Made by a program: the position numbers and the translations under genes. Shown here piece after piece: positions 16,731-64,000 of a stretch of DNA of 64,000 nt. The stretch's first letter is position 1. The number at the start of each line of letters is the position of its first letter. This DNA is from an uncultured Candidatus Saccharibacteria bacterium (GTDB taxonomy: Bacteria; Patescibacteriota; Minisyncoccia; Phycocordibacterales; Phycocordibacteraceae), in NCBI GenBank assembly GCA_964371445.1, contig CAYJLK010000002.1, positions 43,718 through 107,717 of the forward strand, given 5' to 3'. The notes beneath the pieces are model-generated. The model was not told the DNA's origin. It saw only the letters and a list, made by a program, of their open reading frames with translations, and did no database searches.

Positions 16731-17525
16731 CTAGTGGTCAATAGGTTCGCGGTATGGATCAACGCTATAGGGTTTGGCCGGAGCGGGGGGCTCTGCGGGA
16801 GTCGAAGGGACGGTCTTCGGCGAAGCCGATGATTCGACTTTGGGAACGACCACGAAAGGGGCGCGGGCTCCGGCGGGGATAGGGCGCGGCTGAATCGGCG
16901 CGGCTTTCGGAATGTGAGGTTCGACCTTGGGTAATATGGGCGAAGGTCGAACCTCGGGGACCGCGACCGATGGCATCGCACCTGGAAGATTCGCCTGCGG
17001 CGCAGGAGGCATTGACGCCTGCTTAAACTCGATATGCGGCTCTTCATGGTCCTCGAGCATCCTGTTATTCGGCGTCATCGTGACGGCGGCCAGCACATCT
17101 CGCAGAGCGGGTCGTTTGCTCACTCCAGCGGGAATCTTATTTTCCAAATGAAAATGGCTCGGAGGCTGCACAGCCGGCTGAGGCGCATTCCCCATACCAT
17201 TCTTCCTCTCTTCTTCCTGCAGCGGAACAAAAATCTGACTATTCACGTCCCGCACGATACCGTTAATAACTTGTTGGCCGAGTTGAGCTTCATCGGTGAG
17301 CACTTTAATGAATTCGTCGGGGTTCTCGATGCCCATCAGGAGCAGCATAATCTCCCGCTCGAGCACTCCCGCCTGATCGATGCGGAGCGCGTACTTCGCC
17401 ATCAATCCCCGCGCGACCACCGTATACTTCCCTTGTACAAGGTACGCGCGTATCACCGGCGGCAAGGTCTGCATCACCTGCTTGATGCTTTCTTCGAGTG
17501 TCAGTTCCGATTGGTCTTGGTTCAT
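16731..17525 (-). CDS. hypothetical protein with a structured N-domain and Pro-rich C-terminal tail
   Basis: 264 aa. The C-term [46 protein letters not shown] is Pro-rich. Co-oriented with and 7 nt downstream of the 720-aa gene, 70 nt upstream of rpsL. Confidence 0.55.
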
Positions 17526-17532
17526 AGTTTAA

Positions 17533-19695: not shown

Positions 19696-21475
19696 CGGTA
19701 GCCTGAACTACATATAAGGATGAGTTTGGATTACAGACCGTCGTCTTGAGTGCCGCCGCATTCGTCGTGATGAGAATCATCCGATCAAGGATCGACCCTC
19801 CTGAGACAGTGAGGGAGCCCGCCGGAGCGGCATCGGCAATCCCAAACGCCTCCGCCTCTTGCTGAGCGTTCCCGACATCCGTCATAGTTGGCGCCATTGC
19901 CTGGAGCGCCTGCACATCGGCAATATATGCATCTCCCTTCGGATCGACACCCGAGTTCAATTCGGCTTGGACCTTCTGCACCGCCGCACGTGCAGCGGCG
20001 ATAATCACATCTGCTGCCGCCGCTTGTGAGAAGACCGAGGCGATCTCGCCCGTAGACGCGAGCGCCGCCTTCGCCGTCACCGCCTGCGCCCGCGCAGCAT
20101 CGATAAAGACGGTGTGGACGCTGTTCAAGTCTGTCCCCGACCAGAGTCGATTGCCGAATTCGTCAACCGCATTTAGCGCATCGCGTGCGGCAGTATCGGC
20201 GGCGGCAGTGCAGTAGTTCGCGAGAGAGACGACGCTCGTCGAAGCAGTCTCTGCCGATGTCTGTAACGAGTTCCACGCCGATTCATACTGCGTGATGCGG
20301 CTTGTCAGATCAGAACCGGATATCGGAGAACTTGCGGCGGTCTGATAAATAGAAGCGTTCGAGGCTCCGAGAGAACCCGACGCCCTCTCATATTCCATAA
20401 GCCGGGAGGTCGAGTTCGACCCGGCAGGTTGGTCGATGCCGAAGAGTCCTCCTGACTCCGAACCACCGAGAATCTCTACCGCGAAATTCACGGTCTTCAT
20501 GACCGTTGCGATATTTCCCAAGATGCTATTAATCTCGGGACCGACGTTGCCCATGCGCGTGATGATGTCCTGCTGGCCGCCGAGTATTTTATTAAGGGTT
20601 CCCACGATGACCGAACCAGGGGTCTTGATGGTGCCCTGCGTGCCGTCCTTGTTGGTGCAAGGGTCTCCGGGATTGACGCCCTCCATCGCCGTACCGTCAT
20701 TATCTTCGGTAGTGGTCTGGTCGCTGGCGCCGCACCATGAGGCGAAGCCCTGGCCCCAGCTCAATTCTGCGAGGCGCGCGCCGGTGGCGCCGCCGACGCC
20801 TGGTCCGACGAGATCCCCGAGCTTGCTCTGCGCGGCCGGATAGAGCGTATAGGGATTATTCTCCGTCCGCGTCGTGAGGGCGAACCATGCGGCTATGCCG
20901 CCTTGCGACCAATTCCCCGTGAGAAAACTCGGTCGGTACGAGGGCGTCGAGGCGGCGAGCGTATTCATATTTTCTGCCCAGAAGCCGGCGAGACTCGTCT
21001 TGGCGAGATAGTTGGTGCGGAGCGAAGAGGCAATCGAAGAGGCGAATGGCGAATTCGAATTCCGCCCGAATTGGTCGAAGAATCCGAGCGCCCGCGCATC
21101 TCCCACCGTCTGCAGAGACTTCTGCACATCCACTACAAATTGCGGAATGCCGGTGCCGTTTGCCTTGCCGATGACGAAATTTATAATGCCGGCAGTGAGC
21201 ATCTTCATCAGGTTCCCCGAGAGGACAAAGGCGAGCGGCTGGAGCACATAGGCATTGATCTGTTGGGCAGTCGTCGCCCACGCAGTGGTGGCAGTATTTA
21301 CCGAGGTGAGCGTGCTCTTAAGCGCGGTGATGGTACTCTGAAACAGATTCTTCCCGACCTCTACGACCGCGTACTGTGCATGCACTCTCTGCGGTAAAAC
21401 AAGAAATGCCGAAGGCGCGATGAGTGTGACCGTGAGGAGTATTGCGAGTGCAGAAGAGAAGAAGCGCGGCATCAT
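19688..21475 (-). CDS. secreted Ser/Thr/Ala-rich protein
   Basis: 595 aa with a signal peptide (MMPRFFSSALAILLTVTLIAPSAFLVLPQRVHAQ). No known domain. Overlaps neighbours by 8 and 4 nt, which points to an operon. Confidence 0.7.
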   Translation of the reverse strand: MMPRFFSSALAILLTVTLIAPSAFLVLPQRVHAQYAVVEVGKNLFQSTITALKSTLTSVNTATTAWATTAQQINAYVLQPLAFVLSGNLMKMLTAGIINFVIGKANGTGIPQFVVDVQKSLQTVGDARALGFFDQFGRNSNSPFASSIASSLRTNYLAKTSLAGFWAENMNTLAASTPSYRPSFLTGNWSQGGIAAWFALTTRTENNPYTLYPAAQSKLGDLVGPGVGGATGARLAELSWGQGFASWCGASDQTTTEDNDGTAMEGVNPGDPCTNKDGTQGTIKTPGSVIVGTLNKILGGQQDIITRMGNVGPEINSILGNIATVMKTVNFAVEILGGSESGGLFGIDQPAGSNSTSRLMEYERASGSLGASNASIYQTAASSPISGSDLTSRITQYESAWNSLQTSAETASTSVVSLANYCTAAADTAARDALNAVDEFGNRLWSGTDLNSVHTVFIDAARAQAVTAKAALASTGEIASVFSQAAAADVIIAAARAAVQKVQAELNSGVDPKGDAYIADVQALQAMAPTMTDVGNAQQEAEAFGIADAAPAGSLTVSGGSILDRMILITTNAAALKTTVCNPNSSLYVVQATGG

Positions 21476-22491
21476 GGTTTTGTGGGCGTGATGTCCGCGA
21501 TGAGGTTCACGAACGAGGCTCCCGGCGTCTTATCGGGGAGCGTGACGCCCGCCGCCGCATATATCCTACCGATATTCGTGAATGCCGTTCCGAGTGCGAT
21601 TACCGCCCTTGGATACTGATCGAGCGCGAGCATCGTCGCGAGCGGATCGGTATCGGCACGCGTGAAATCGGTCGCTATCTGGCTCATGCGCATGAGTGCA
21701 TTGACCAGCGTGAGCGCATCGGCGGCGAGCTCCTTGGGCACCGGCAACACGGCGAGACCGACCGCAGAATCCCGATACGCCTTCGCTATCGAAGCGATGT
21801 GCGGATATGCCGTAGTATCGCCGTTGAGGAGAGCACTCTTCAGATAATTAATCTCGCTCGTCGTCGCATTACTCGTATTCTTCAGGAGTACCGCTTCAGC
21901 GCTCACCGCAAATGTCTTGAGCGCATCGGCACCGAAGCCAGAAACCGCAAGGTCTTTTGCGGATCGGTAATCGGGGGCGATGGCGATGGTCGACTTGAGC
22001 GATTCGAGAGCCTGACCGGAGATGGCAACCATCTCGCTTTCAGACAGATTCGCCCCGCCCTTCGCTTCCTTCGCCGCCAGATAGATCGTGAAGAAATTTC
22101 TCGCGAAGGCGGCAGTCAAGGTCCCTTCTGCGGGCGGCGGCGGGAGCGAGCCGTCGAGGCTCATAGGAGAGGAGGAGGCCGTGACGGCAATATCGGCAAT
22201 CGCTTTCGGTACGATCAGACCCTTGGTGACAGCGGCGCCGTCGGTCATGCCGAGACGGAACGTATCGGTCATATGCGAATCGGTCCCGTAGAGCGCCTCT
22301 TCCCAATCAGGGAGACCGTCGCCGTCGGTATCTCGTGTCGCGATCGCTTGGAGAAGCTCTGTTTCAGTAGAAGCCTGAGCGGTCGAAGGAGACTCGACGC
22401 TCTTCGCGAGCATATAGGCGCCAATGACCAAAACCGCTGAGAAGAGCGATGCGGCTACGATTCGCCAATGTGGAAGCAGTCTTTCCCCCAT
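21472..22491 (-). CDS. N-terminally anchored extracytoplasmic protein with a DTDGDGLPDWEE Ca-binding-like motif
   Basis: 339 aa with one N-terminal TM (IVAASLFSAVLVIGAYML). Carries a thrombospondin-type-3 / DxDxDG-like motif. Confidence 0.7.
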   Translation of the reverse strand: MGERLLPHWRIVAASLFSAVLVIGAYMLAKSVESPSTAQASTETELLQAIATRDTDGDGLPDWEEALYGTDSHMTDTFRLGMTDGAAVTKGLIVPKAIADIAVTASSSPMSLDGSLPPPPAEGTLTAAFARNFFTIYLAAKEAKGGANLSESEMVAISGQALESLKSTIAIAPDYRSAKDLAVSGFGADALKTFAVSAEAVLLKNTSNATTSEINYLKSALLNGDTTAYPHIASIAKAYRDSAVGLAVLPVPKELAADALTLVNALMRMSQIATDFTRADTDPLATMLALDQYPRAVIALGTAFTNIGRIYAAAGVTLPDKTPGASFVNLIADITPTKP

Positions 22492-41998: not shown

Positions 41999-43414
41999 CT
42001 ATTCGTCTTTCGCTTTGTCGCGATCTTCTCCAGCGTCAGCGACGGTCTCGTCGCTTGCAGGGAGCTGGGTCAGTTCCTCTTCAGCCGGGAGCTCGGTCGC
42101 CTGCGGCGCCTCGTCCGTAACAAGCTCCATGCTCTCGGTCGGCATGAGACCGACCGCAATGGCCGGATCCTCTTCAGGCGTGACGGCGACTGTCTCGCCG
42201 TCTGACTCCGCAACTTCGGCGCCGCCGGTTGAAACGATATCGATGTTCCAGCCGGTAAGCTTCGCCGCGAGGCGGACGTTCTGACCGCCCCTACCGATGG
42301 CGAGCGACTGTTCGTCTTCGGCGACCGTCACCGTCGCGCGGTGATCAGCCTCGTCGAGCACGACGTCAAGCGGGGTCGCGGGGGAGAGCGCCTCTTTTAT
42401 GAATGCTGCCGCATCATCATTCCACTCGATGATGTCGATGCGTTCGCCGCCGAGCTCGCTCATGACGGTCGAGACGCGCACACCGCGCTGACCGACGAGA
42501 GAACCGACCGGATCGACGTGCGGATCCTTCGAGGCGAGCGCGATCTTGGTGCGGCTCCCCGGCTCGCGCGCAAGCGCCTTCACTTCTATCGCGCCCGATG
42601 CGAGTTCCGGCGCTTCCATCTCAAACAGCTTCACCACGAACTTCGGATGCGCGCGGGAGAGGCGCAGATATACGCCGCGGAATCCCTCATCAACCGCATA
42701 GAGATAGGCGCGGATGCGCTCGCCCATACGGTACCGCTCGCCCGGAATCTGTTCCTCGTAGGGGATGATGCCGGTGGTGCGGCCGAGGTCGACAAAGATC
42801 GCCCCGCGCTCCATGCGCTGGACGATGCCGCCCACGATCTCGCCCTTTTTCTCGCCGAATTCCTCCATCATGGAGAGTTTTTCGGCCTCGCGCACCTTTT
42901 GGATGACCACCTGCTTGGCGGTCTGCGCCGCGATGCGGCCGAAGTCGTCCTGCGGCTCGAGCGGGAAGATAATTTCTTCATTCACGCTCACCCCGCGCTT
43001 CATCAGCTTCGCGTCGGCGAGCAGAATGTGCTTCTCGGGGTCAAAGCGCGGCAGCTCGCCTTCGGCGAGATGCTCATCGCCCTCATGAAATCCGTGCCCG
43101 TGCTGGTGCTCCTCGGGAATCTCTTCGCCCTCCTCGGGGAAACGCACCGTCGTGTCGTCCACGACGGTCTTTACCTGTTCAAAGGCAATCGTGCCCGTAT
43201 TGAGGTCGAGTTTTGCATGAACGACCTGTCCGCGCTTGCCGTATTCGCGCTTATACGCAGTCGCCATCGCGCTCTCAATCGCCTCGATCATGGTCGCGCG
43301 GCTGATGCCCCGATCTTCGAACTCTCCGAGCACTGCGTTGATGGTCTTTAGGTCAATCATGGTATGGGTTGTGTATGTTGCACTTTTTAAAAAGAAAGCC
43401 CGCAAAGCGGACAT
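41999..43414 (-). CDS. nusA: transcription termination/antitermination factor NusA with acidic C-terminal extension
   Basis: S1 plus two KH domains (GSRTKIALASKDPHVDPVGSLVGQRGVRV). Long Glu/Asp-rich C-term. True start probably MIDLKTINAV at about 43360. Confidence 0.88.
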   Translation of the reverse strand: MSALRAFFLKSATYTTHTMIDLKTINAVLGEFEDRGISRATMIEAIESAMATAYKREYGKRGQVVHAKLDLNTGTIAFEQVKTVVDDTTVRFPEEGEEIPEEHQHGHGFHEGDEHLAEGELPRFDPEKHILLADAKLMKRGVSVNEEIIFPLEPQDDFGRIAAQTAKQVVIQKVREAEKLSMMEEFGEKKGEIVGGIVQRMERGAIFVDLGRTTGIIPYEEQIPGERYRMGERIRAYLYAVDEGFRGVYLRLSRAHPKFVVKLFEMEAPELASGAIEVKALAREPGSRTKIALASKDPHVDPVGSLVGQRGVRVSTVMSELGGERIDIIEWNDDAAAFIKEALSPATPLDVVLDEADHRATVTVAEDEQSLAIGRGGQNVRLAAKLTGWNIDIVSTGGAEVAESDGETVAVTPEEDPAIAVGLMPTESMELVTDEAPQATELPAEEELTQLPASDETVADAGEDRDKAKDE

Positions 43415-43511
43415 TCAGATAGTTGCAAGTATACCAGATACGCTTCGCACGTCAATAATGTGTGCAATGAGCGTTTTGCCCATAGCAGAGCGCGCTATAC
43501 TTATCCGTAAT

Positions 43512-45260
43512 ATGCACGTTTCGGAAGGCGAACTGAAAGAATTCATCACTGATTCTGGCCTTGTCGCCAAGAAAGAGATCGATGCCGCCGACAAAGAAGC
43601 AAAAGCGCGCGGACAATCGCTCGGTGCGGTCCTCGTCTCGCGCGGTTCTCTGACCGAAGACGCGCTCCGGCGCATCCAGGCATACGTGCTCGGCATTCCG
43701 TTCGTCAATCTTAAGGAACATCGCGTTCCCGTCGACGTGCTCGCGCTCATCCCAGAACCGATTGCGCGCACGCACAACATCATCGCGTTTAAGAAGGACG
43801 GCGACTCCCTTGAAGTGGCGATGCTCGACGTCGAAGACCTCGCATCGATCGACTCGGTGCGGAAGAAGACGGGGCTCAAGATCCTTTCGCGGCTGACCGA
43901 CACGGAGAGCATCAAGTATACGCTTCTGCAATACCAGAAGTCGCTGAAGGACGAGTTCGGCGATATCATCTCGACCGAAGCGGGGAAGATCCGCGTCGTA
44001 ACGGAGGGCGGGAAGGAGCTCTCGGGCGACGAACTGAAAAAGATGGCCGAGGATCTGCCGATCGTGCGCATCGTCGACACCCTGCTCCGCCACGCGATCG
44101 TCCAGGGCGCCTCCGACATCCATATCGAACCGATGGAGAGCGAAGTGCTCGTCCGCTATCGCATCGACGGCATTCTCCACGATGCGATGACACTCCCGCG
44201 GCCTGCGGCCGCGGGCATCGTCGCACGCATCAAGGTCTTGTCCAACTTAAAGCTCGATGAGAAGCGCCTCCCCCAGGACGGCCGGTTCAAGATGGAGACT
44301 GAAGCCGATCGAGTATCCTTCCGCGTCTCGATACTCCCGACCTTCTTCGGCGAAAAGACCGTTATGCGCCTTCTGCGCGAGACCGGAGAAGGCTTCACGC
44401 TTGATGTGCTCGGGCTCCACGGCGAGAATATGGAGCGCATCCACCACGCGCTCACGCAAACGACCGGTATCATCCTTGTCTCGGGGCCGACCGGAAGCGG
44501 AAAGACGACGACGCTCTATACGATGCTCGACATTTTGAATCAGCCGGACGTCAATATCTCCACTGTCGAGGATCCAATCGAATACCAGATGAAGCGCGTG
44601 AACCAGACGCAGGTGAATCCGCAGATAGGATTTACCTTCGCGAGCGGACTCCGGTCCCTCGTGCGCCAGGACCCGGACATCATCATGGTCGGCGAGATCC
44701 GCGACAGCGAGACGGCGTCGCTCGCAATCAATGCCGCACTGACCGGTCACCTGGTCCTCTCGACCATCCACACCAACAGCGCCGCGGGCGCCATTCCGCG
44801 GCTTATCGATATGGGCGTCGAACCGTTTCTGTTGGTCTCTACGCTCCGCGTCATCATCGGTCAGCGCCTCGTGCGCAAGCTCTGCGAGGGCAAGGAGCAA
44901 TACTCAATGGACAAGGCGACACGCGGGAAGATCGCGAGCGAAGAAGAGTTCAATGTTGCATTCAAAACGCTTAAGGACGAGAAGCTGGTGAAAGAAGGTT
45001 CCACGCTCGACGACATCGCGTTCTATCGGCCGAAGGAGTCCGCCGAATGCGCCGACGGATACAAGAGCCGCATCGGCATTCATGAAGTGCTCTCAGTCTC
45101 GCCGACCATCCGCGAGATTATGCTGCACTCGAGCACGAGCGGCGCTATCGAGGAGCAGGCGAAGAAAGAAGGCATGCTCACGATGTTTGAAGATGGACTC
45201 TACAAGGCCGCGCGCGGCGTTACCTCAGTCGAAGAAGTGCTCCGCGCCATCACCGAATAA
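43512..45260 (+). CDS. pilB: type IV pilus assembly ATPase PilB/GspE family
   Basis: Trimmed to MHVSEGELKEF.... GspE N-domain, Walker A VSGPTGSGKTTTLYT, and a tetracysteine-like region. Confidence 0.88.
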   Translation: MHVSEGELKEFITDSGLVAKKEIDAADKEAKARGQSLGAVLVSRGSLTEDALRRIQAYVLGIPFVNLKEHRVPVDVLALIPEPIARTHNIIAFKKDGDSLEVAMLDVEDLASIDSVRKKTGLKILSRLTDTESIKYTLLQYQKSLKDEFGDIISTEAGKIRVVTEGGKELSGDELKKMAEDLPIVRIVDTLLRHAIVQGASDIHIEPMESEVLVRYRIDGILHDAMTLPRPAAAGIVARIKVLSNLKLDEKRLPQDGRFKMETEADRVSFRVSILPTFFGEKTVMRLLRETGEGFTLDVLGLHGENMERIHHALTQTTGIILVSGPTGSGKTTTLYTMLDILNQPDVNISTVEDPIEYQMKRVNQTQVNPQIGFTFASGLRSLVRQDPDIIMVGEIRDSETASLAINAALTGHLVLSTIHTNSAAGAIPRLIDMGVEPFLLVSTLRVIIGQRLVRKLCEGKEQYSMDKATRGKIASEEEFNVAFKTLKDEKLVKEGSTLDDIAFYRPKESAECADGYKSRIGIHEVLSVSPTIREIMLHSSTSGAIEEQAKKEGMLTMFEDGLYKAARGVTSVEEVLRAITE

Positions 45261-45336
45261 CTATGCCCCGTATGACAACCTCAATCTTCAAGCGTTTTTC
45301 TAAAGAGGCAACTTATGTAAAGTTGTCATACGGGGT

Positions 45337-46551
45337 ATGAAATTTCGCGTCACTATACGCAAAGAGGGAGTGCCGGATGTCGAGAGCCTCATCGAGGCGC
45401 CGTCACGCTTCGCAGTATACGAACAAGTGCAGAATGATGGCGGGTTCGTCGTCAAACTTTCCGAAGTGGGCCGGGCATCCGCCCTATCAAAGTGGCTTTC
45501 CTACAGCATCGGCACCGGCATAAAGCGCTCCGAGATTATCCGCATGGTGCGGAACCTTTCCGCGATGCTCACCGCCGGGCTCTCGCTGTCGCGCGCGCTC
45601 TCGGTCATCGAACGGCAATCGGGCAACGCGCACCTGAAGGCGATCATCATCGAGCTCTCCGATTCGATAAAGAAAGGATCCTCATTCCATGAGGGATTGA
45701 GCGCTCATCCGAACGTGTTCCCTAAGATACTCGTCGCGATGGTGCGCGCCGGTGAAGAGTCGGGCTCTCTGTCCGATGCGCTTCTCATCGTCGGACTGCA
45801 GATGGAGCGTTCTGAAGAGCTCATACGCAAGATTAAGGGCGCGATGATCTATCCCTCGATTGTTATTTCGACGGTCATTATCGTCGGCATCCTGATGCTC
45901 ATCTATGTTGTCCCGACGCTCACCCACACCTTTAATCAGCTCGGCGTTGAAGTGCCGCTCGCAACCCGCATCATCGTCGGCCTTTCGAACTTCATGGTGG
46001 CTCATATCATCCTTGTCCTCGCGCTACTTATCGCAGGCGTCGTCGGCGGCATCGCCGCGGCGCGTTCGAGGTGGGGGAGCAATCTCATCCTTGCCGGAGC
46101 GCTGTATCTGCCGGTCATCGGGGAGCTCGTGCGAGAAACATACACCGCACGCGCGGCGCGGACGCTTTCGTCGCTCCTCTCTTCGGGCGTACCGGTCCTC
46201 GACGCCCTTTCTATTACGAAGGAGGTTGTGCGCGCAGATGCATTCGCGAACGTGGTTGGAGAAGCGGAAGAGCACGTGAAGAAAGGGGAGCTTCTCTCCG
46301 CGTCATTCGCCGAACACACGCGGCTCTATCCGATCCTGATGAGCGACATGCTCGCCGTCGGAGAAGAGACGGGCAAGGTCGCCGAGATGCTGAAACAGAT
46401 TGCAGAATTTTATGAAGCAGATGTCGCCGCGCAGACGAAGGACCTCTCGACCATCATCGAGCCGGTGCTCATGCTCGTCATCGGCGCCTTCGTCGGCATC
46501 TTCGCCGTCTCAATCATCGCGCCGATCTACTCGCTCTCCTCAGCGTTTTAA
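45337..46551 (+). CDS. pilC: type IV pilus inner-membrane platform protein PilC/GspF family
   Basis: 404 aa with two T2SSF repeats and 3 TM. Confidence 0.88.
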   Translation: MKFRVTIRKEGVPDVESLIEAPSRFAVYEQVQNDGGFVVKLSEVGRASALSKWLSYSIGTGIKRSEIIRMVRNLSAMLTAGLSLSRALSVIERQSGNAHLKAIIIELSDSIKKGSSFHEGLSAHPNVFPKILVAMVRAGEESGSLSDALLIVGLQMERSEELIRKIKGAMIYPSIVISTVIIVGILMLIYVVPTLTHTFNQLGVEVPLATRIIVGLSNFMVAHIILVLALLIAGVVGGIAAARSRWGSNLILAGALYLPVIGELVRETYTARAARTLSSLLSSGVPVLDALSITKEVVRADAFANVVGEAEEHVKKGELLSASFAEHTRLYPILMSDMLAVGEETGKVAEMLKQIAEFYEADVAAQTKDLSTIIEPVLMLVIGAFVGIFAVSIIAPIYSLSSAF

Positions 46552-54256: not shown

Positions 54257-55777
54257 ATGAGTGTCTTGATTTCAGTCACTGGAGGGTTTGTGAGCGGGGT
54301 AGGACTCCGCTCGCTTTTTTATTTCGGGTGGGAGCCGGCGGCGTTTGTGATGATACTCGCGGCACTTCTTGGTGCCGCGGCATTTTATAAGCCGCGAGTC
54401 GTGTACACGATGGGTACAGTGTTTTGTTTATTCGTCGCGTTCGGGATGGTGCGCTCAACAGTCGCCGATACGCCGCCGCCCGAGGCGTTTGTGCGCGACC
54501 TGAAGCATCGCGTGTCGTATGAAGCAGTGGTGGTGGGGGACCCGGATGTGCGCGAGAAGAATCAAAGGATTGCGATTCAAGTGGGGGATGTGGGCATGCT
54601 TGCCGTGATGCCGCTCTCGGCTCGCGTAGCGGTCGGCGACCGCGTGCGCGTCTATGGCACGCTTTCCTTGCCGCAAGCGTTTGAGACCGAAAATGGTCGG
54701 ACATTTCGTTATGACAAATATCTCGAGGCGCGCGGTATCCGCTTTCTTATCCAATACGGGACGATATATACACAGGAGCCAGCACTGTGGTATTCGGTTC
54801 CGGCCGCCTTAGCACGCATCAAGCACTCATTTCTCGACGGGCTCAACCGCGCATTGCCGACACCGGACAGCGCGCTCGCGGGCGGCATCGTGATAGGAGG
54901 GAAGCAGGGGCTCGGCACCGAACTCCAAGAGGCATTCACGCGCTCGGGGCTCGTCCAGATCATCGTGCTCTCGGGCTACAACGTGATGATAGTCGCCGAA
55001 TGGGTGATGGCATTCTTCGCGCTCCTTGCGCTCCCGCGCCGTCTCCAATTCTTTGCTGGCGGGGCGGCACTCCTCCTCTTTGTTGGCATCGCCGGCATCT
55101 CCGCCACGGCGGTGCGTGCCGCCATCATGGCGGTCATCGCGCTCTACGCGCGAGCGACCGGGCGCTCCTATGCCGCGAGCCGTGCGCTCCTATTCGCCGT
55201 CCTCCTCATGCTCATATGGAATCCGCTCTATCTCGTCTTTGACCCCGGCTTCGGTCTCTCGGTCGCCGCGACCGCAGGCATCATCTGGCTCGCCCCGATT
55301 ATTGAACGCATGATGGACTTCGTAGGTCCATCATCAGATGAGGGACCTACGAAGTCCCGACATGGGTTCTGGACAAACACAATTGCGACCACGCTCGCCG
55401 CGCAAATCTCGGTACTTCCATTATTGCTCTACAACATCGGACTCTTCTCGCTCGTCGCACTGCCGGCGAATATCCTGGTGAACCCGCTCGTGCCGCTCGC
55501 GATGGCTCTCGCCGCTATTGCGGGAGTCGTCGGCATGACTATCGGACCTTTCATTCCATTTATCACCGCCGTCATCGGCGCCCCCGCCCACCTCCTCATG
55601 CGCTACTTCATCTTTATCGCAGAAAAAAGTTCCGCACTGCCGTATGCGGCATTCAATCTGCCCCTCTTCTCATTTTGGCTCGTCCTCGCCGCGTATGCGG
55701 CGCTCATTTATATAGTCGCGTCGAAGCGCTTCTCGACGACCGACCAGTTCACATTCGCGAAAAAGGCGTCGACATAA
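54257..55777 (+). CDS. comEC: DNA internalisation competence protein ComEC/Rec2 (no C-terminal metallo-beta-lactamase domain)
   Basis: DUF4131-like N-region plus a polytopic competence domain (QIIVLSGYNVMIVAEWV). 506 aa; ends after the TM bundle. Confidence 0.8.
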   Translation: MSVLISVTGGFVSGVGLRSLFYFGWEPAAFVMILAALLGAAAFYKPRVVYTMGTVFCLFVAFGMVRSTVADTPPPEAFVRDLKHRVSYEAVVVGDPDVREKNQRIAIQVGDVGMLAVMPLSARVAVGDRVRVYGTLSLPQAFETENGRTFRYDKYLEARGIRFLIQYGTIYTQEPALWYSVPAALARIKHSFLDGLNRALPTPDSALAGGIVIGGKQGLGTELQEAFTRSGLVQIIVLSGYNVMIVAEWVMAFFALLALPRRLQFFAGGAALLLFVGIAGISATAVRAAIMAVIALYARATGRSYAASRALLFAVLLMLIWNPLYLVFDPGFGLSVAATAGIIWLAPIIERMMDFVGPSSDEGPTKSRHGFWTNTIATTLAAQISVLPLLLYNIGLFSLVALPANILVNPLVPLAMALAAIAGVVGMTIGPFIPFITAVIGAPAHLLMRYFIFIAEKSSALPYAAFNLPLFSFWLVLAAYAALIYIVASKRFSTTDQFTFAKKAST

Positions 55778-57751: not shown

Positions 57752-58089
57752 AAGTCTCTGGTACTCAAAAGGGAAGAGGCGACGAATCGCCTCTTGGCTC
57801 AGAGAACGTTTGCCCAACGGGGGCCGTATACGCAAGGAAACAAATGCTCGTACTGTGAGTCACTGATCCGGTGGTTGTTCTCGGAGAAAATAATCGGACA
57901 GAGGCAAATGTGACACGTTTGTTGCTGCCTTTCTTCTTCTTTGTGCGCTTGTGCAATAAGTGCAAGGGTAAAGCCGGCTGACATGTCCATACGCCCTCCT
58001 TTCCGATCTAAAGAGCAGATCGCACACTATAAGCATATACCCACTTCTGACGCGCAACTCCGTTATGCACTACTGCTATACTACGGGGA

Positions 58090-58524
58090 ATGGAATACCA
58101 GGTGCCGCAGTTCATTGAAGTCGAGGACAAGATCATCGGTCCTTTGACCTTGAAACAATTCATCTATATCGCCGGAGCAAGCGGACTCTGCATCGTTTTC
58201 TTCGTCTATTTACCCATCATCGTCGCCCTCCTCCTCGCGGCGCCGGTGGCAGGGCTCGCAGCGGCACTCTCGTTTTATAAGATGAACGGGAAACCGTTCA
58301 TCGAGGTGCTCGAGGCCGGATTCAGTTATTACACGCGGGGGAAACTCTTCCTCTGGAAACATCAGGACCAAAAGGTCCAGGAAGAGAGCGTCGCGGATAC
58401 GGCCGCCGCGGAGATTCCGTCGCCGCGCGCCACGCCGAAGCTCACGCGCGGGAAGCTCTCGGAGCTTGCGTGGTCGCTCGACGTACAGAAGGCGGGCGGC
58501 AATGCCGAGAACAAGAATCCCTGA
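58090..58524 (+). CDS. PrgI-family / VirB3-like small membrane protein of monoderm-type T4SS
   Basis: MEYQVPQFIEVEDKIIGPLTLKQFIYIAG followed by two TM helices. Immediately upstream of the VirB4 N-domain ORF. Confidence 0.6.
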   Translation: MEYQVPQFIEVEDKIIGPLTLKQFIYIAGASGLCIVFFVYLPIIVALLLAAPVAGLAAALSFYKMNGKPFIEVLEAGFSYYTRGKLFLWKHQDQKVQEESVADTAAAEIPSPRATPKLTRGKLSELAWSLDVQKAGGNAENKNP

Positions 58525-58525
58525 T

Positions 58526-59161
58526 ATGGCGGTACCCTCAGCAAGCGCAACCCAGCAGTTCGTTCCGGTGAAGGAGATCCGGAACGGCATCATTATCCTC
58601 AAAGACGGCGGCTACCGCGGCGTGCTTATCTGTTCCTCGATCAACTTCGGACTCAAGTCGGCCGATGAACAGCACGCGATCACGCTCGGCTTCCAGAATT
58701 TCCTCAATACGCTCGACTTCTCGATACAGATTGTTATCAATTCGCGCCGGATGGACCTGCGTCCCTACCTCGCGCTCCTGGGAGAAAAGTCCGCCGAACA
58801 AAAGACAGAGTTGATGCGGATCCAACTTCGCGAGTATATCGAATTCGTCCGCTCCTTCACCGACCAGGCGAATATCATGACGAAATCTTTTTACGTCGTC
58901 GTCTCATACACGCCGCATGTCAGCGCCGCGAGCGCGACCAGCTTCCTGCGGCGCGAGAATGCCGCGGTGAAGAGCGCCGCTGCCGAGACTTCTTTCGAAG
59001 AAGATCGGGCTCAGCTCGAACAAAGGCTCACACTCGTCGCCGCCGGTCTTGCAGGCACCGGCGTTCGCGCGGTCCCGCTCGGTACTGAAGAGGTCATCGA
59101 ACTGTTGTATCGTTCATTTAATCCGGGCGAACTTGAGAACCCTATCAGGCTCGATAATTAA
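58526..59161 (+). CDS. VirB4/TraE-family N-terminal domain as a separate ORF
   Basis: QQFVPVKEIRNGIIILKDGGYRGVLICSSINFGLKSADEQHAITLGFQNFLNTLDFSIQIVINSRR matches the N-terminus of Gram-positive-type VirB4. Ends 4 nt before the ATPase ORF, in a different frame. Confidence 0.7.
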   Translation: MAVPSASATQQFVPVKEIRNGIIILKDGGYRGVLICSSINFGLKSADEQHAITLGFQNFLNTLDFSIQIVINSRRMDLRPYLALLGEKSAEQKTELMRIQLREYIEFVRSFTDQANIMTKSFYVVVSYTPHVSAASATSFLRRENAAVKSAAAETSFEEDRAQLEQRLTLVAAGLAGTGVRAVPLGTEEVIELLYRSFNPGELENPIRLDN

Positions 59162-59165
59162 ACGT

Positions 59166-60992
59166 ATGGCACTCCTCGACTTTCTCAATCGTAAAAAAGA
59201 AGAAGAAGAAGAAGCGCCGGCGGTCATGCCGGTCTTGCCGAGAGACATCTACCGGCAGGGAGCGCTGAGCCTCGTTGACACTATCGCTCCGACGGCGCTG
59301 AAGATCAGCTCGCGCGAGCTCGAACTCGGAGAAAAATTCGTCCGCGCTTTTTACACTATCTCGTATCCTCGTTTCCTCTCCGACAGCTGGTTCTCGCCCA
59401 TCATCAATCTCGACAAAGTGCTTGATGTCTCTCTCTTCATCCACCCGGTAGAGACCGAACAGGCCCTGCGCGGCTTCCAGAAGAAGGTTGCCGAGGTCCA
59501 GAGCCAGATTAACGAGCGCGAAGCGAAGGGATTGGTGCGCGATCCGCTGCTTGATACGGCGTACCAAGATCTCGAGAGCCTGCGCGATAGCCTCCAGCAG
59601 GCGCAGGAAAAGCTCTTCGATGTCGGCCTCTACCTCGCGCTCTACGGCGACACGAAGGAGGAGATCGACCGGACCGAAGGCGATATCCGCGGTATCCTCG
59701 ACGCAAAGCTCGTCTATACGAAGCCGGCGTTGTTCCAACAGGAGCAGGGGTTCCGCTCATGCCTGCCCTTGGGTAGCGACGAGCTCCTCGTCAATTCGAA
59801 GTTGAATTCATCGCCGCTTTCTTCGATATTCCCGTTCGTTTCTTTCGACCTGACGAGCGACCGCGGCATCCTCTACGGCATCAACCGACACAATTCTTCG
59901 CTTATTCTCTTCGACCGCTTCTCGCTCGAGAACTACAATTCCGTCGTGTTTGCAAAGTCCGGTTCCGGCAAAAGCTACGCGACGAAGCTCGAGATCCTGC
60001 GCTCCCTGATGTTCGGCACCGACGTCATCGTCATCGATCCCGAACGCGAATACGAACAGCTCGCCGAAGCGACGGGCGGACGCTCATTCCACATCTCGCT
60101 CTCTTCCGAGCATCATATCAATCCGTTCGATCTCCCGCCGGTCAAGGAAGACGAGGATCCGAAGGATGTCCTGCGCTCCAACATCATCGCGCTTGTCGGA
60201 CTCTTCCGCATCATGCTCTCGGGACTCTCTCCCGAAGAAGACGCGATCATCGACCGCGCCATAAGTGAAACGTACGCGCTCAAAGACATCACCGGCGATT
60301 CCGACTTTACCGGCGCCGAACCGCCGCTGCTCTCCGATTTCGAACAGGTGCTCTCCGGCATGGAGGGAAGCGAATCGCTGGTCGAGCGCCTCTCGAAATA
60401 TACTCGCGGGTCGTGGTCGGGATTCCTTAATCAGCCAACCAACATCGACCTGAAACAGCAGTTCGCCGTCTTCTCGGTGCGCGATATGGAGGACGAGCTG
60501 AAACCAGTCGCGATGTATATCGTCACGCACTACATCTGGAATGCGGTACGGCACGAGATGAAGAAGCGGCTCCTTATCATCGACGAGGCGTGGTGGATGA
60601 TGAAGAGCGACGACACCGCCTCCTTCCTCTACTCGCTTGCGAAGCGCGGAAGAAAATATTATCTGGGCGTCTGTACCATCACGCAGGATGTCGAGGACTT
60701 CTTGAAGAGCCCGTACGGTCGGCCGATCCTTACCAACTCCTCTATCCAGTTATTGTTGAAACAGTCGCCGACGACCATCGACGTGCTCCAACAGACCTTC
60801 AATCTTACCGATGAGGAAAAATATCTTCTGCTCGAGGCTGGCGTCGGGGAAGGGCTCTTCTTTGCAGGATTGAAGCATGTCGCCATCAAGGTCGTCGCGA
60901 GCTATACCGAGGACCAGATTATTACCTCTGATCCTTCCCAGCTGATCGCCATTAAGCAAGAGAAGGATCGGTATGCCGCAGAAAAGAAATAG
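59166..60992 (+). CDS. VirB4/TraE-family conjugative ATPase (central and C-terminal domains)
   Basis: Walker A FAKSGSGKSY, Walker B LLIIDEAWWMM, FYTISYPRFLSDSWFSPIINL region. 609 aa. Confidence 0.85.
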   Translation: MALLDFLNRKKEEEEEAPAVMPVLPRDIYRQGALSLVDTIAPTALKISSRELELGEKFVRAFYTISYPRFLSDSWFSPIINLDKVLDVSLFIHPVETEQALRGFQKKVAEVQSQINEREAKGLVRDPLLDTAYQDLESLRDSLQQAQEKLFDVGLYLALYGDTKEEIDRTEGDIRGILDAKLVYTKPALFQQEQGFRSCLPLGSDELLVNSKLNSSPLSSIFPFVSFDLTSDRGILYGINRHNSSLILFDRFSLENYNSVVFAKSGSGKSYATKLEILRSLMFGTDVIVIDPEREYEQLAEATGGRSFHISLSSEHHINPFDLPPVKEDEDPKDVLRSNIIALVGLFRIMLSGLSPEEDAIIDRAISETYALKDITGDSDFTGAEPPLLSDFEQVLSGMEGSESLVERLSKYTRGSWSGFLNQPTNIDLKQQFAVFSVRDMEDELKPVAMYIVTHYIWNAVRHEMKKRLLIIDEAWWMMKSDDTASFLYSLAKRGRKYYLGVCTITQDVEDFLKSPYGRPILTNSSIQLLLKQSPTTIDVLQQTFNLTDEEKYLLLEAGVGEGLFFAGLKHVAIKVVASYTEDQIITSDPSQLIAIKQEKDRYAAEKK

Positions 60993-61635
60993 CGCCGAGC
61001 CACCGAAGGTGATGACCTGGGGAAAGGCAGCACCGATTCTTGCTGTGTGTGTCATCTTCGACGCGCTGCGCCTCATGTTCGAAATGTTCTGGTTCTTCGG
61101 ACCGGCGATGGCCGCCCTCTACTGCACCGTTAAGGTGAGCGGGGTGGTCGGAACGACCTTGGGAGGATTTGCCTGCGGTGTCGGCGCTACGGTGGCGGGA
61201 ACCCTCGGAGCTCCCGCCATAGAGGTTTTCGGCGTCGTGATGGCGATAGCTGTCGGACTCTTCGGATGGCTCGTCATCGGACTCTGGCTCATGGTAACGA
61301 ACGCGCGCATTTTCAAAGAGAATGCCGCCTGGTTTGCCGGTAGTCTCCTCATAAGCGAGATACCTATTGTCGGTTCGATACCCGCACTTACCATCATCGT
61401 CTGGAAAATGTACCGCACGCAAATCACGCTAGAAAAAGCCGAGATGCAGCGCTATGAACAGGAGCGAGCCGCTGCCGAACGGCAGGAGCGCGAACAACGA
61501 ATCGCCCTCGTACTCCACAACCAATCACTGCAACAAGCGCAGATCGAGCAGGAAGAGGCGGCGGACGATGCGCTCTCTGCCGAAGCCGCAAATGATGATG
61601 AATATATCCCCCAAAAGATGAGAGAGGCGGCGTGA
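60973..61635 (+). CDS. polytopic membrane protein with coiled-coil C-terminal tail (VirB6-like candidate)
   Basis: 4-5 TM helices then QRYEQERAAAERQEREQRIALVLHNQSLQQAQIEQEE. A GAGAAGGA SD precedes the ATG at 60973. Overlaps the VirB4 end. Confidence 0.55.
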   Translation: MPQKRNSAEPPKVMTWGKAAPILAVCVIFDALRLMFEMFWFFGPAMAALYCTVKVSGVVGTTLGGFACGVGATVAGTLGAPAIEVFGVVMAIAVGLFGWLVIGLWLMVTNARIFKENAAWFAGSLLISEIPIVGSIPALTIIVWKMYRTQITLEKAEMQRYEQERAAAERQEREQRIALVLHNQSLQQAQIEQEEAADDALSAEAANDDEYIPQKMREAA

Positions 61636-62663
61636 CCTCTTGCAAGAGGCGCTATACTAGACGCATGCGTTCTGGTCTCCTCACCATTCTCACTGCCGCC
61701 CTCATGCTCCCCGGTATAGCTGCCGCCCAGGTGTTTGCCGACCTGGGAATAAGCGACACCGCGTCCTTCAATCTCTCCGCCATTCCTCAGTACCCGGTGC
61801 CCTACGGCAAGGTGTCCCTCTCCTTCCTTTCAGGTTCTATCGAGCTAACGAGCGCGACCTTGACCGTTTCCGCAAACGGAAAAGACATATACCGAGGCTC
61901 GGTACAGCCGGTCTCTGTCACGCTCGGAAAGGCGGGGAGCGTAACAAATGTGACGGCGATTATATCTGCCGGCGGCGAGAAATACACTCAGACACTCCGC
62001 ATCCAACCCCAAGACGTCGCGCTCATCGCCGAACCGATCTCCTTCGCGCCCCCGCTCTATCCCGGGAAACCGCTCGTACCACTCGACGGGACTGTGCGCG
62101 TCGTCGCTATGGCGAATCTGAAAAATGTCAGCGGAAAGTCGCTCGACCCCGCGACACTCTCCTACGCATGGGTCGTCGACAACATGCAGATCGCAAACTC
62201 CTCGGGCATCGGCAAGACGGCAATCATGGTCGCCTCGCCGCTTCAGTACCGCAGTCGCGATGTTGCGGTCTCGGTCATGAGCGCCGACGGGAGCCACGTC
62301 GGGGGCGCATCGCTCTCGCTCTCGTCCCTCGAGCCTTCGATACGCCTCTATGAAAATGACCCCTTGCTCGGCATTCGTTTCAACCGCGCCCTTTCGGGCG
62401 CATACTCCATCATGAACGCCGAGTCTTCGCTCTATGCCGCTCCATTTTCGCTCCCGACCCAGCGTGGAGCGCCGCTTATCCAGTGGTTCTTAAACGGAGA
62501 ACCAGCACAGACTGGCGGCTCCATAACCCTGCGACCGACGGGAAGCGGGCAGGGGAGCGCCTCGCTCTCGCTCACTGCCTCCTCAGGGGAGTATGCAAAG
62601 GCGACTGCGAACCTCTCCCTCAAGTTCGGTGAAAAACCCGAATTTAATTTCTTCGGATTATGA
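61632..62663 (+). CDS. secreted protein, hypothetical (T4SS-cluster associated)
   Basis: Signal peptide MRSGLLTILTAALMLPGIAAAQ from Met12 (61665), then a Ser/Thr/Ala-rich beta-type domain. The stop TGA overlaps the next ATG (ATGA). Confidence 0.6.
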   Translation: MTSCKRRYTRRMRSGLLTILTAALMLPGIAAAQVFADLGISDTASFNLSAIPQYPVPYGKVSLSFLSGSIELTSATLTVSANGKDIYRGSVQPVSVTLGKAGSVTNVTAIISAGGEKYTQTLRIQPQDVALIAEPISFAPPLYPGKPLVPLDGTVRVVAMANLKNVSGKSLDPATLSYAWVVDNMQIANSSGIGKTAIMVASPLQYRSRDVAVSVMSADGSHVGGASLSLSSLEPSIRLYENDPLLGIRFNRALSGAYSIMNAESSLYAAPFSLPTQRGAPLIQWFLNGEPAQTGGSITLRPTGSGQGSASLSLTASSGEYAKATANLSLKFGEKPEFNFFGL

Positions 62664-62741
62664 ACCCCGTTAGAAATCACGAACAAAATATGAAAGATAA
62701 AAATGTGGCAGGAAGTCGCATGGGTTCTATTTCTAACGGGG
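62660..62741. repeat. second copy of the inverted-repeat element ATGAACCCCGTTAGAAAT-N51-ATTTCTAACGGG-GTG
   Basis: Arms at 62665-62677 and 62729-62740. Same arm sequence, spacing and flanking ATGAA / RTG as the ppa copy. Spacer sequences are unrelated. Confidence 0.6.
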
Positions 62742-63544
62742 TGAAGAAAACGACGCTCATTCTCTCTGTTCTCTCATTTTTCGCGCTCGCCTCGACCGCC
62801 TTTGCACAAGGATTCGTCCCGCTCGCACCGATACCCGGTCTCACCGAGGGCGCGACAGCAGACACGGCTGGTCTCGCGAACTTCTTCAACAACCTCTACA
62901 AATATCTCATCGGTCTCGCTGCTGCGCTCGCTGTCATTGAAATCATCTGGGGCGGACTTGAAATATCGACACAGGATTCGGTGAGCAAGAATAAAGACGG
63001 GAAGGATCGTATCTATCAGGCGATCTTCGGCCTTGTCCTCGTCCTCTCGCCAGTGCTTGTCTTCTCCATCATCAATCCGAGTATTCTGAATCTCTCATTG
63101 AATCTCCAGAAGCTGGATACAGCATCCACAGCACCAAGTCCAGTACCAAGTGGAACGGGAACAGGGGACACAACCACAGCGACTGCAGCTGGATGCTCTG
63201 TGTCACTTAATCAAGGCGTTGTTGGTTGCCCGACTCAAGCAGCAGCTGATGCCTGGGTTAGTTCATGTTCGAACGGCACTGGGCGCGTGTATCTATCAAA
63301 TGAAGCTTCGTTACCTTATGCGGCAACCTGTAACGTCTTGCAACCATTTCGGGGAAACCAAAATTATACTGACAAGACAACGATCCCAGCAGGGCTGTGG
63401 TGTTTCAAGACCGAAGATGCCAACAAGCCCAACACTATTGTTTACACCTGCGGTGCAAGTAAAGACGCCTGCGACACCCTCGCTATGCGTCCTCCTCTAG
63501 GAGGACGTGTCTTCGCCGATTGTGCAAGCCCTCCTCCTAATTAA
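62660..63544 (+). CDS. pilin-like (VirB2/TrbC-like architecture) secreted protein with Cys-rich C-terminal domain
   Basis: Signal peptide, two hydrophobic helices (LANFFNNLYKYLIGLAAALAVIEIIWGG; IFGLVLVLSPVLVFSII), Thr-rich linker, 8 Cys in the last about 110 aa. Start ambiguous among ATG 62660 (coupled), ATG 62720 (AGGAAG SD) and GTG 62741. Confidence 0.55.
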   Translation: MNPVRNHEQNMKDKNVAGSRMGSISNGVKKTTLILSVLSFFALASTAFAQGFVPLAPIPGLTEGATADTAGLANFFNNLYKYLIGLAAALAVIEIIWGGLEISTQDSVSKNKDGKDRIYQAIFGLVLVLSPVLVFSIINPSILNLSLNLQKLDTASTAPSPVPSGTGTGDTTTATAAGCSVSLNQGVVGCPTQAAADAWVSSCSNGTGRVYLSNEASLPYAATCNVLQPFRGNQNYTDKTTIPAGLWCFKTEDANKPNTIVYTCGASKDACDTLAMRPPLGGRVFADCASPPPN

Positions 63545-63546
63545 AT

Positions 63547-64000
63547 ATGCGCCGCTTACTTATCATTGCCGCAGTCGCGATACTCCTCCTCGGGCTTGGA
63601 ATTATCGCGTACTTCTATTTCTTCGCGGGCGGCTCGGCGGGCGTTGAGGTGACTGTGCCGAGTTCAAATGTCAGCCTTCCCTCGGCAGAGCAGGGGACAG
63701 CGCCCGCTACCGGCACAACTGCCGGCGGCGGCGGTACTCAAAACGAACCCACAAATGCGCCGGTAGCAGTCTCCGCGCGGCTGGTGAAGATAAGCGCCGG
63801 ACCGGTCGTGCCGGGAGCAGCCGTGGTAAGCAAGACAAGAAATGCCAGCTCCACGCCCTCCTCGACGTCGCCCGGGACGAGCGACACGACCGTCACCTAC
63901 ATCGAGCGGACAAGCGGTAATGTATTCTCCTATTCCACGAACACAAAAACGTCTACGCGCACCAGCAATAAAACAATTCCGGGCATTCAATCCGCCGCAT
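63547..64000 (+). CDS. N-terminally anchored Ser/Thr/Gly-rich protein, partial (runs off window end)
   Basis: MRRLLIIAAVAILLLGLGIIAYFYFFAGG... with no stop before 64000. Not in the ORF track because it is open-ended. Confidence 0.5.
   Translation, partial: MRRLLIIAAVAILLLGLGIIAYFYFFAGGSAGVEVTVPSSNVSLPSAEQGTAPATGTTAGGGGTQNEPTNAPVAVSARLVKISAGPVVPGAAVVSKTRNASSTPSSTSPGTSDTTVTYIERTSGNVFSYSTNTKTSTRTSNKTIPGIQSAA

Follow-up and report, generated by a model that had tools for sequence, protein, structure and literature searches.

A resident type IV secretion system, probably non-conjugative, beside the replication origin of an ultra-small patescibacterium

The last part of a 64,000-nt stretch of DNA from an uncultured patescibacterium (contig CAYJLK010000002.1; the whole stretch is hereafter called the window) holds seven genes, g1 to g7, all on the plus strand, which extend from position 58090 to the window end. 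This cluster is a type IV secretion system (T4SS) that is resident and non-conjugative, and that nearly all ultra-small Patescibacteria (candidate phyla radiation, CPR) carry beside the replication origin. The system itself is already known, since it was described between 2023 and 2025 (Wang 2023, PMC10633639; Quinonero-Coronel 2025, PMC12102498). An earlier inspection of the letters and translated open reading frames (ORFs), referred to here as the sequence-only reading, had proposed seven co-oriented genes for a T4SS of Gram-positive style, without visible relaxase or coupling protein and possibly non-conjugative. Gene number and orientation were borne out by the ORF listing, and the proposal as a whole, apart from a VirB6-like label and two gene overlaps, is supported by profile scores, synteny and the literature.

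Gene g1 (58090..58524) codes for a PrgI/VirB3-like small membrane protein of 144 amino acids (aa). It is followed by g2 (58526..59161, 211 aa), a stand-alone VirB4 N-terminal domain of TrsD/TraD-like type, and by g3 (59166..60992, 608 aa), a VirB4 ATPase without N-domain; the gaps between these three genes are 1 nt (g1/g2) and 4 nt (g2/g3). The membrane protein encoded by g4 (60973..61635, 220 aa) displays four long helices and a charged cytoplasmic helix of about 80 residues. Next come g5 (61665..62663, 332 aa), whose product is a secreted protein with a signal peptide and a predicted series of beta-sandwich domains, and g6 (62720..63544), a VirB2-type T4SS pilin of 274 aa (294 aa when read from ATG 62660). 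The last gene, g7, occupies 63547..64000 and encodes an extracytoplasmic protein anchored in the membrane by its N-terminus (hydropathy). It was confirmed to run off the window end: on the identical contig L002 its product is 413 aa long and the gene ends at about the window-equivalent position 64788.

The label of PrgI-like protein, previously given to the small product of g1 by eye, is now backed by the Pfam threshold, as g1 scored 37.5 bits against PF12666 (PrgI) for a cut-off of 27; its hydropathy profile displayed a hydrophobic hairpin at about residues 21-65. Genes g2 and g3 matched complementary, non-overlapping parts of the CD1110-family VirB4 model NF045971 (positions 1-166 and 184-733, respectively). 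Likewise, BLASTP aligned the whole length of g2 to residues 26-205 of the 797-aa VirB4 of plasmid pCDC3875 (E 3e-8), and g3 covered roughly residues 209-757 of the same protein. A TraC-like domain (PF26593) is recorded in precomputed annotation on proteins identical to g2, which did not reach the cut-off of the TrsD/TraD family (NF041427, 17.9 bits versus 200). As judged from these matches, g2 would be TrsD-like in kind, i.e. a separate VirB4 N-domain, yet not a member of that family at NCBIfam stringency. A further g2 match, to a PHROG annotated as 'terminase large subunit' (E 5e-7), was considered a remote similarity without functional bearing.

The assignment of g3 to VirB4 was clear. Its score against NF045971 was 382.6 bits (cut-off 325) and PF19044 was matched as well, followed by TraC-F (186.6 bits) and VirB4_CagE (125 bits). 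An FtsK/HerA-like ATPase, the alternative that the sequence-only reading had named, was set aside because DUF87/HerA and CedB scored only 33.6 and 32.5 bits. Walker A (AKSGSGKS) was found at residue 263 and Walker B (LLIIDE) at residue 469, and the best solved structure was the VirB4 C-domain 4AG5 (E 7e-44, residues 233-588). The nearest plasmid-encoded VirB4s were CD1110-family proteins from Firmicutes and Actinobacteria, with 29-35% identity (maximum 35.5%).

N-domain and ATPase, which a single polypeptide can combine, are divided here between g2 and g3. This split, already reported by the sequence-only reading, is genuine: both genes lie in different frames with a stop between them, and the arrangement is conserved among relatives. 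Relatives of g2 in the database number 6404; the best 120 all stand alone and measure about 211 aa. For a cross-species sample, a g2 alignment was used to scan one genome of each GTDB species, which yielded 80 loci; the TrsD-like gene was matched in 80 of them and VirB4 in 79. Five species have other genes, amounting to 0.55-0.9 kb, inserted between the TrsD-like gene and virB4 (L029, 3478-4362; L035, 9653-10371; L059, 613-1164; L062, 10637-11441; L082, 10628-11506). The division of VirB4 is thus real and ancient. A frameshift or pseudogene reading was rejected on the conservation of the split across relatives and its tolerance of inserts. As to the inserts themselves, all five carry a gene for a four-helix-bundle protein of the 23S-rRNA-IVS type (PF05635, E 4e-36), those of L029 and L082 also hold a DUF5680 gene (PF18931), and their GC content is lower, at 0.41-0.50.

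The taxon labels of the 80 loci, where specific, were Kaiserbacteria, Paceibacterota, Parcubacteria or Minisyncoccia for most. Exceptions were metagenome-assembled genomes (MAGs) labelled 'uncultured Candidatus Saccharibacteria' and a few Nomurabacteria and Adlerbacteria, while the remainder were labelled just 'bacterium' or 'Patescibacteria group'. One MAG, JBAZXD01 (isolate SO_2017_GW1_48), displayed two copies of the cluster region (L010 and L037), one on a 3-kb contig with a g2 100% identical to that of the window, the other on a 387-kb contig with 89% identity. This bin is probably a mix of two related strains.

Genes for a protein identical to g3 occur on 22 public contigs. One of these, a 103-kb ENA contig, comprises the whole window; there, g7 is followed by yidC and rnpA, both on the other strand, and then by dnaA, dnaN and a gene for a class A penicillin-binding protein, dnaA being located 2.1 kb beyond g7. 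A g4 identical to that of the window lies on a 723-kb contig. Upstream neighbours are comEC (54257-55777), sod, rpmB and a gene for an M50 peptidase. When all cluster and flanking proteins were compared with the 80 related loci by tblastn, the order comEC-sod-L28-M50-[PrgI-TrsD-VirB4-g4-g5-pilin-g7]-yidC-rnpA-dnaA-dnaN was recovered in about 80 species wherever the contig reaches, per-gene locus counts declining only with distance from the anchor. The sequence-only reading had put forward such a synteny check, and the fixed chromosomal site next to dnaA in about 80 species argues for a resident system.

A clear hierarchy was observed in cross-species conservation, expressed as median identity of the relatives' proteins to those of the window. 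VirB4 came first with 91.6% (range 88.7-94.7, from 71 species), above DnaA (88.7%), L28 (87.5%), DnaN (82.0%) and YidC (77.7%). The TrsD-like g2 reached 82.9%, PrgI (g1) 66.7%, g7 62.2%, g5 60.4% and g4 45.6%. Single-nucleotide polymorphisms among near-identical assemblies were mostly synonymous. GC content was flat across the window (0.55-0.60). Precomputed Pfam annotation was used from about position 9.7 kb of the window up to 7 kb beyond the window end, and the first 10 kb, which hold a ribosomal-protein operon, were scanned directly. In the window and the 7 kb downstream of it, no relaxase or VirD4-type coupling protein (type IV coupling protein, T4CP) was found, so that the absence noted by the sequence-only reading holds up to 7 kb beyond the window end; nor did this range show a VirB1-type hydrolase adjacent to the cluster or an integrase in its vicinity.

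These data bear on the idea that the cluster is a decaying or integrated conjugative element, i.e. a plasmid remnant or an integrative conjugative element (ICE) in which the divided VirB4 would be a frameshifted pseudogene. Every recognisable part indeed descends from conjugation genes, and VirB4 is spread over two ORFs in different frames. Against this stand the fixed site, which in about 80 species is flanked by identical housekeeping neighbours, the 88.7-94.7% identity of VirB4 across species and a split that is conserved in thousands of proteins, tolerates inserted genes and recurs as TrsD + TrsE in functional pGO1-type systems (PMC12102498). Furthermore, the hallmarks of such elements (relaxase, T4CP, integrase, flanking repeats, variable site) were lacking near the cluster, as was any compositional shift. 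This origin is therefore hardly credible. The cluster is a core system that is inherited vertically and kept under strong purifying selection, and not an integrated element.

Gene boundaries were examined at the three places where the sequence-only reading had reported overlaps. At 60973, g3 and g4 do overlap by 20 nt, and a conserved GGAGAAGG-type (GGAG-type) site precedes the g4 start in relatives. The 4-nt overlaps at 61632 and 62660, on the other hand, are probably artefacts of picking the most upstream start codon. Almost all of the 120 g5 homologues measure 329-332 aa and a conserved TATACT box falls between GTG 61632 and ATG 61665, so that the latter is the likely g5 start. For g6, ATG 62720 was favoured because the first residue of many distant homologues corresponds to about residue 29 of the 294-aa form and because gene callers chose the 274-aa form in most near-identical assemblies.

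The same TATACT motif occurs twice in the cluster, at 58077..58082 (plus strand, 7 nt 5' of the g1 ATG) and at 61653..61658 (plus strand, 6 nt 5' of the g5 ATG). Boxes of this type were present before g1 in 75 of 76 related loci and before g5 in 37 of 39, and were essentially absent before g2, g3, g4 and g7 of these loci. The octamer CTATACTA occurred twice in the window, in both cases at these boxes, versus 0.22 occurrences expected. The boxes were found by comparative inspection; a scan with consensus sigma-70 promoters and terminators was uninformative. Their position suggests -10-like elements of two putative promoters and two leaderless transcription units, g1-g4 and g5-g7. Such conserved leaderless-type promoters were found in neither Wang 2023 nor Quinonero-Coronel 2025.

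The cysteine-rich protein g6, described as pilin-like by the sequence-only reading, passed the threshold of PF18895 (T4SS_pilin) with 34.4 bits (cut-off 26.6), and scored 25.9 bits against TrbC. It is composed of a signal peptide, two hydrophobic helices separated by a charged loop, a Thr/Pro/Ser linker and a C-terminal domain with eight cysteines. The first three features are typical of VirB2/TrbC pilins, whose mature size of about 100 aa is exceeded here by a C-terminal extension of about 110 aa. No second pilin gene was detected in the window by hmmsearch. An exhaustive search recovered 10,644 related cluster representatives; the best 150 ranged from 146 to 512 aa and, in nearly all, similarity was confined to about residues 29-200.

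The two parts of the pilin differed in conservation among 56 syntenic orthologues (L013-L089). Over the N-terminal part, all 1540 of 1540 pairs could be aligned (median identity 64%). Beyond a conserved ...IINPSILNLS... motif, the C-terminal part varied from 38 to 324 aa, was alignable in 129 of the 1540 pairs and fell into at least 18 unrelated groups. Its cysteines numbered from 0 to 24, with an even count in 56 of 56. Three species were essentially devoid of the pilin Cys domain (0-1 cysteines). In the near-identical assembly L006, a nonsense change (C244*, at the position equivalent to window 63451) removes the last 31 residues of the Cys-rich pilin domain, through strain variation or else through an error of assembly. 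In VirB2/TraA pilus structures, the termini face outward and the inter-helix loop faces the lumen. Given this orientation, the g6 extension should, by analogy, be exposed at the surface. A modular architecture of the pilin C-domain was not found in the 2025 survey (PMC12102498), and a hypervariable C-domain with cysteines in even number was found neither there nor in Wang 2023.

The three accessory genes proved more elusive. Protein g4 had been labelled VirB6-like by the sequence-only reading, a label that was left without sequence or fold support: neither similarity to VirB6, TrbL, PrgH or CD1112 profiles nor the five or more transmembrane helices expected for that family were found, and the g4 family is not demonstrably VirB6. 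Protein g5 gave no significant sequence match in searches of Pfam, NCBIfam and PHROGs or of profiles against PDB, and its three tandem immunoglobulin (Ig)-like domains were resolved only by structure prediction. Its C-terminus (window 62600-62663) displayed an invariant F..FGL motif (F321 ... F330 G331 L332) across 113 homologues, which could be a sorting, anchoring or strand-insertion signal. Protein g7, syntenic in 55 loci, had no Pfam, NCBIfam or PDB-profile match; a beta-propeller-like repeat pattern may be perceived in its sequence. As far as tested, g4, g5 and g7 seem to be lineage-specific. A mention of three accessory genes conserved across species was found in neither Wang 2023 nor Quinonero-Coronel 2025.

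Taken together, we consider it probable that this T4SS derives from the conjugation machinery of monoderm bacteria (mating-pair-formation type FATA, MPF-FATA), that its DNA-processing parts were lost, and that it serves the epibiotic lifestyle through host attachment and macromolecule exchange, not plasmid transfer. In such a machine, PrgI/VirB3 would anchor at the membrane a two-piece VirB4 motor made of the TrsD-like N-domain and the ATPase. Motor and g4 would then drive the assembly of a VirB2-type pilus or conduit built of g6, whose disulfide-rich, species-variable C-domain would lie outside the cell and touch the host cell. Extracytoplasmic accessory roles may fall to g5, with its Ig domains, and to the anchored g7, and the whole would support attachment of the epibiont to its host and the exchange of macromolecules, of whichever kind, with it. 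In line with this, Southlakia epibionticum cannot grow as an epibiont without PrgI, a TrsD-like gene, VirB4 and its array of pilins (PMC10633639), and a 2026 preprint describes tubular structures where parasite and host meet, which may be pili of a T4SS.

Several points weigh against this reading. Homologues of VirB6, VirB8 and VirB1, with which a channel might cross the wall, were not recognised among the seven genes. The essentiality data come from a class other than Paceibacteria (Saccharimonadia). Polymerisation into a classical pilus might be impeded if each pilin subunit bears a globular domain of 110-300 aa, and VirD4 homologues are reported in the literature elsewhere in many Patescibacteria genomes.

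The missing channel parts lend some weight to a pure adhesion organelle, in which VirB4 would only assemble a host-tethering pilus that bears the variable domain, with nothing passing through a channel. Neither VirB6 and VirB8 nor a T4CP, i.e. channel or substrate-recruitment parts, can be recognised in the cluster, the pilin carries a variable disulfide-rich surface domain, and the Ig-like folds predicted for g5 are of adhesin type. These components may, however, be too diverged for recognition. Patescibacteria already possess type IV pili for the purpose of adhesion, and the conservation of VirB4, on a par with core replication proteins, suggests more than attachment. Adhesion as the sole function is accordingly judged quite improbable.

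The vicinity of comEC raises another possibility, namely a DNA-uptake machine like Helicobacter ComB or archaeal Ced, whose pilus would bring in environmental or host DNA for import by ComEC. This gene lies 2.3 kb upstream of the cluster and is syntenic with it in 60 of the 80 loci; relaxase and T4CP are absent, as in ComB, and T4SS loci of class ABY1 co-localise with comF, recG and radA (PMC12102498). Weak CedB and CedD matches were also recorded, as expected for distant kinship of these ATPases. Yet, sod, rpmB and the M50 peptidase gene, unrelated and on mixed strands, separate comEC from the cluster, and genes of the usual monoderm uptake apparatus, the type IV pilus, are found elsewhere in the window (PilB-like T2SSE and PilC-like T2SSF, 43236-46551). 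In Southlakia, moreover, comEC deletion ends competence and not viability, while the T4SS genes are essential (PMC10633639; review PMC12857230), so that the essential role is not exerted via ComEC. DNA uptake is judged an unlikely explanation. Of the alternative offered by the sequence-only reading, host interaction or DNA uptake, the non-conjugative use was supported, and the choice between the two is not decidable from sequence.

Within the preferred reading of a T4SS serving the epibiotic lifestyle, a more specific and tentative proposal concerns the single pilin of Kaiserbacteria-like Paceibacteria. It may be a modular 'pilin-adhesin', in which the Thr/Pro/Ser linker connects a conserved pilus-forming N-part to an exchangeable disulfide-bonded domain that, displayed along the T4SS pilus or at its end, would set host choice. 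This protein would then take the role of the arrays of divergent pilins of Saccharibacteria, and g4, g5 and g7, as lineage-specific structural parts, would replace the unrecognised VirB6, VirB8 and VirB1 functions. Should the C-domain be a determinant of host recognition, it would provide a sequence handle for the prediction of host range in uncultured lineages.

A second region of the window, between ksgA and the rpsL-rpsG-fusA operon, holds a conserved four-gene module (16731-22491, minus strand) encoding proteins of 339, 595, 720 and 264 aa. The 720-aa protein (17533-19695) displays a signal peptide, about seven to eight hydrophobic segments and a charged, coiled-coil-like tail of 320 aa, an architecture that resembles the large 'extended VirB6' of Southlakia. 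The 595-aa and 339-aa proteins carry N-terminal signal or anchor sequences. None of the module proteins had a family match, and alignment of the 720-aa protein with CD1112 VirB6 by hhalign was non-significant (E 0.037, probability 1.4%, 87 columns). In 80 species, the module was never encountered within 10 kb of the T4SS cluster. The three module relatives recovered by a metagenome scan were all beside the rpsL-rpsG-fusA operon and not beside T4SS genes. The partnership of this module with the T4SS, as suggested by the sequence-only reading, is a possibility that these comparisons did not support.

Patescibacteria are ubiquitous and for the most part uncultured, and their T4SS is one of a small number of machines whose essential role in epibiotic life has been demonstrated. 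The window offers no new kind of system; what it provides is a clear and compact representative for the largest class, Paceibacteria. The seven genes, apparently transcribed as two units, lie next to oriC, with a VirB4 beyond DnaA in conservation and one pilin whose outer domain is swapped between species.

Comparison with published systems placed the cluster among the T4SS of the Patescibacteria clade. In these (PMC12102498), VirB4 is nested in MPF-FATA, TrsD is the commonest associated component, PrgI/VirB3 is present, and VirB2-like pilins occur, which is unusual in monoderm systems; relaxases are almost absent, T4CPs are rarely nearby, and the loci of Paceibacteria are found near dnaA, dnaN and rnpA. 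The corresponding features were observed here: a VirB4 of MPF-FATA affinity with adjacent TrsD-like and PrgI genes, a pilin 1.7 kb past virB4, no relaxase or T4CP nearby and a site near dnaA, dnaN and rnpA. VirB4 proteins identical to g3, or 88.7-94.7% identical to it, were encountered only in MAGs of Paceibacterota/Kaiserbacteria, against a maximum of 35.5% for any plasmid VirB4, so that g3 probably belongs to the Patescibacteria clade.

The T4SS of Southlakia (SEML1_0006-0019) displays the same core order, with PrgI (SEML1_0010), a TrsD-like protein (SEML1_0009) and an N-truncated VirB4 of about 610 aa (SEML1_0008), and likewise includes a PF18895 pilin and has no relaxase or T4CP nearby. 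It differs by an array of six pilins, where a single one with a hypervariable Cys-rich C-domain is found here, and by a large extended VirB6-like protein, an NTF2/VirB8-like protein and a hydrolase, all of which are missing from the present cluster.

Among the conjugative MPF-FATA systems, pGO1, pSK41 and pIP501 share with the cluster a separate small VirB4 N-domain protein 5' of the ATPase (TrsD + TrsE), a VirB3-like small membrane protein upstream and a monoderm organization without outer-membrane core. Contrary to the cluster, they reside on plasmids, mediate conjugation and possess a relaxase, a T4CP, a VirB1 hydrolase and VirB8-like proteins, and do not have a VirB2 pilin. The CTn2/CD1110-family T4SS of Clostridia and Bacilli (e.g. 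C. botulinum pCDC3875) provided the best-scoring VirB4 family and also display PrgI directly 5' of virB4. Their 797-aa VirB4 is, however, unsplit and flanked by VirD4 (CD1115), VirB6 (CD1112) and an SLT transglycosylase, none of which was recognised in the present cluster, and these elements are mobilizable through a MOBP relaxase. ComB of Helicobacter pylori resembles the cluster as a chromosomal T4SS without relaxase or coupling protein and works together with ComEC. It is a diderm system of MPF-T type composed of VirB2-4 and VirB6-10; nothing observed in the cluster indicates DNA import, and the published comEC genetics of Saccharibacteria speak against an essential link with ComEC.

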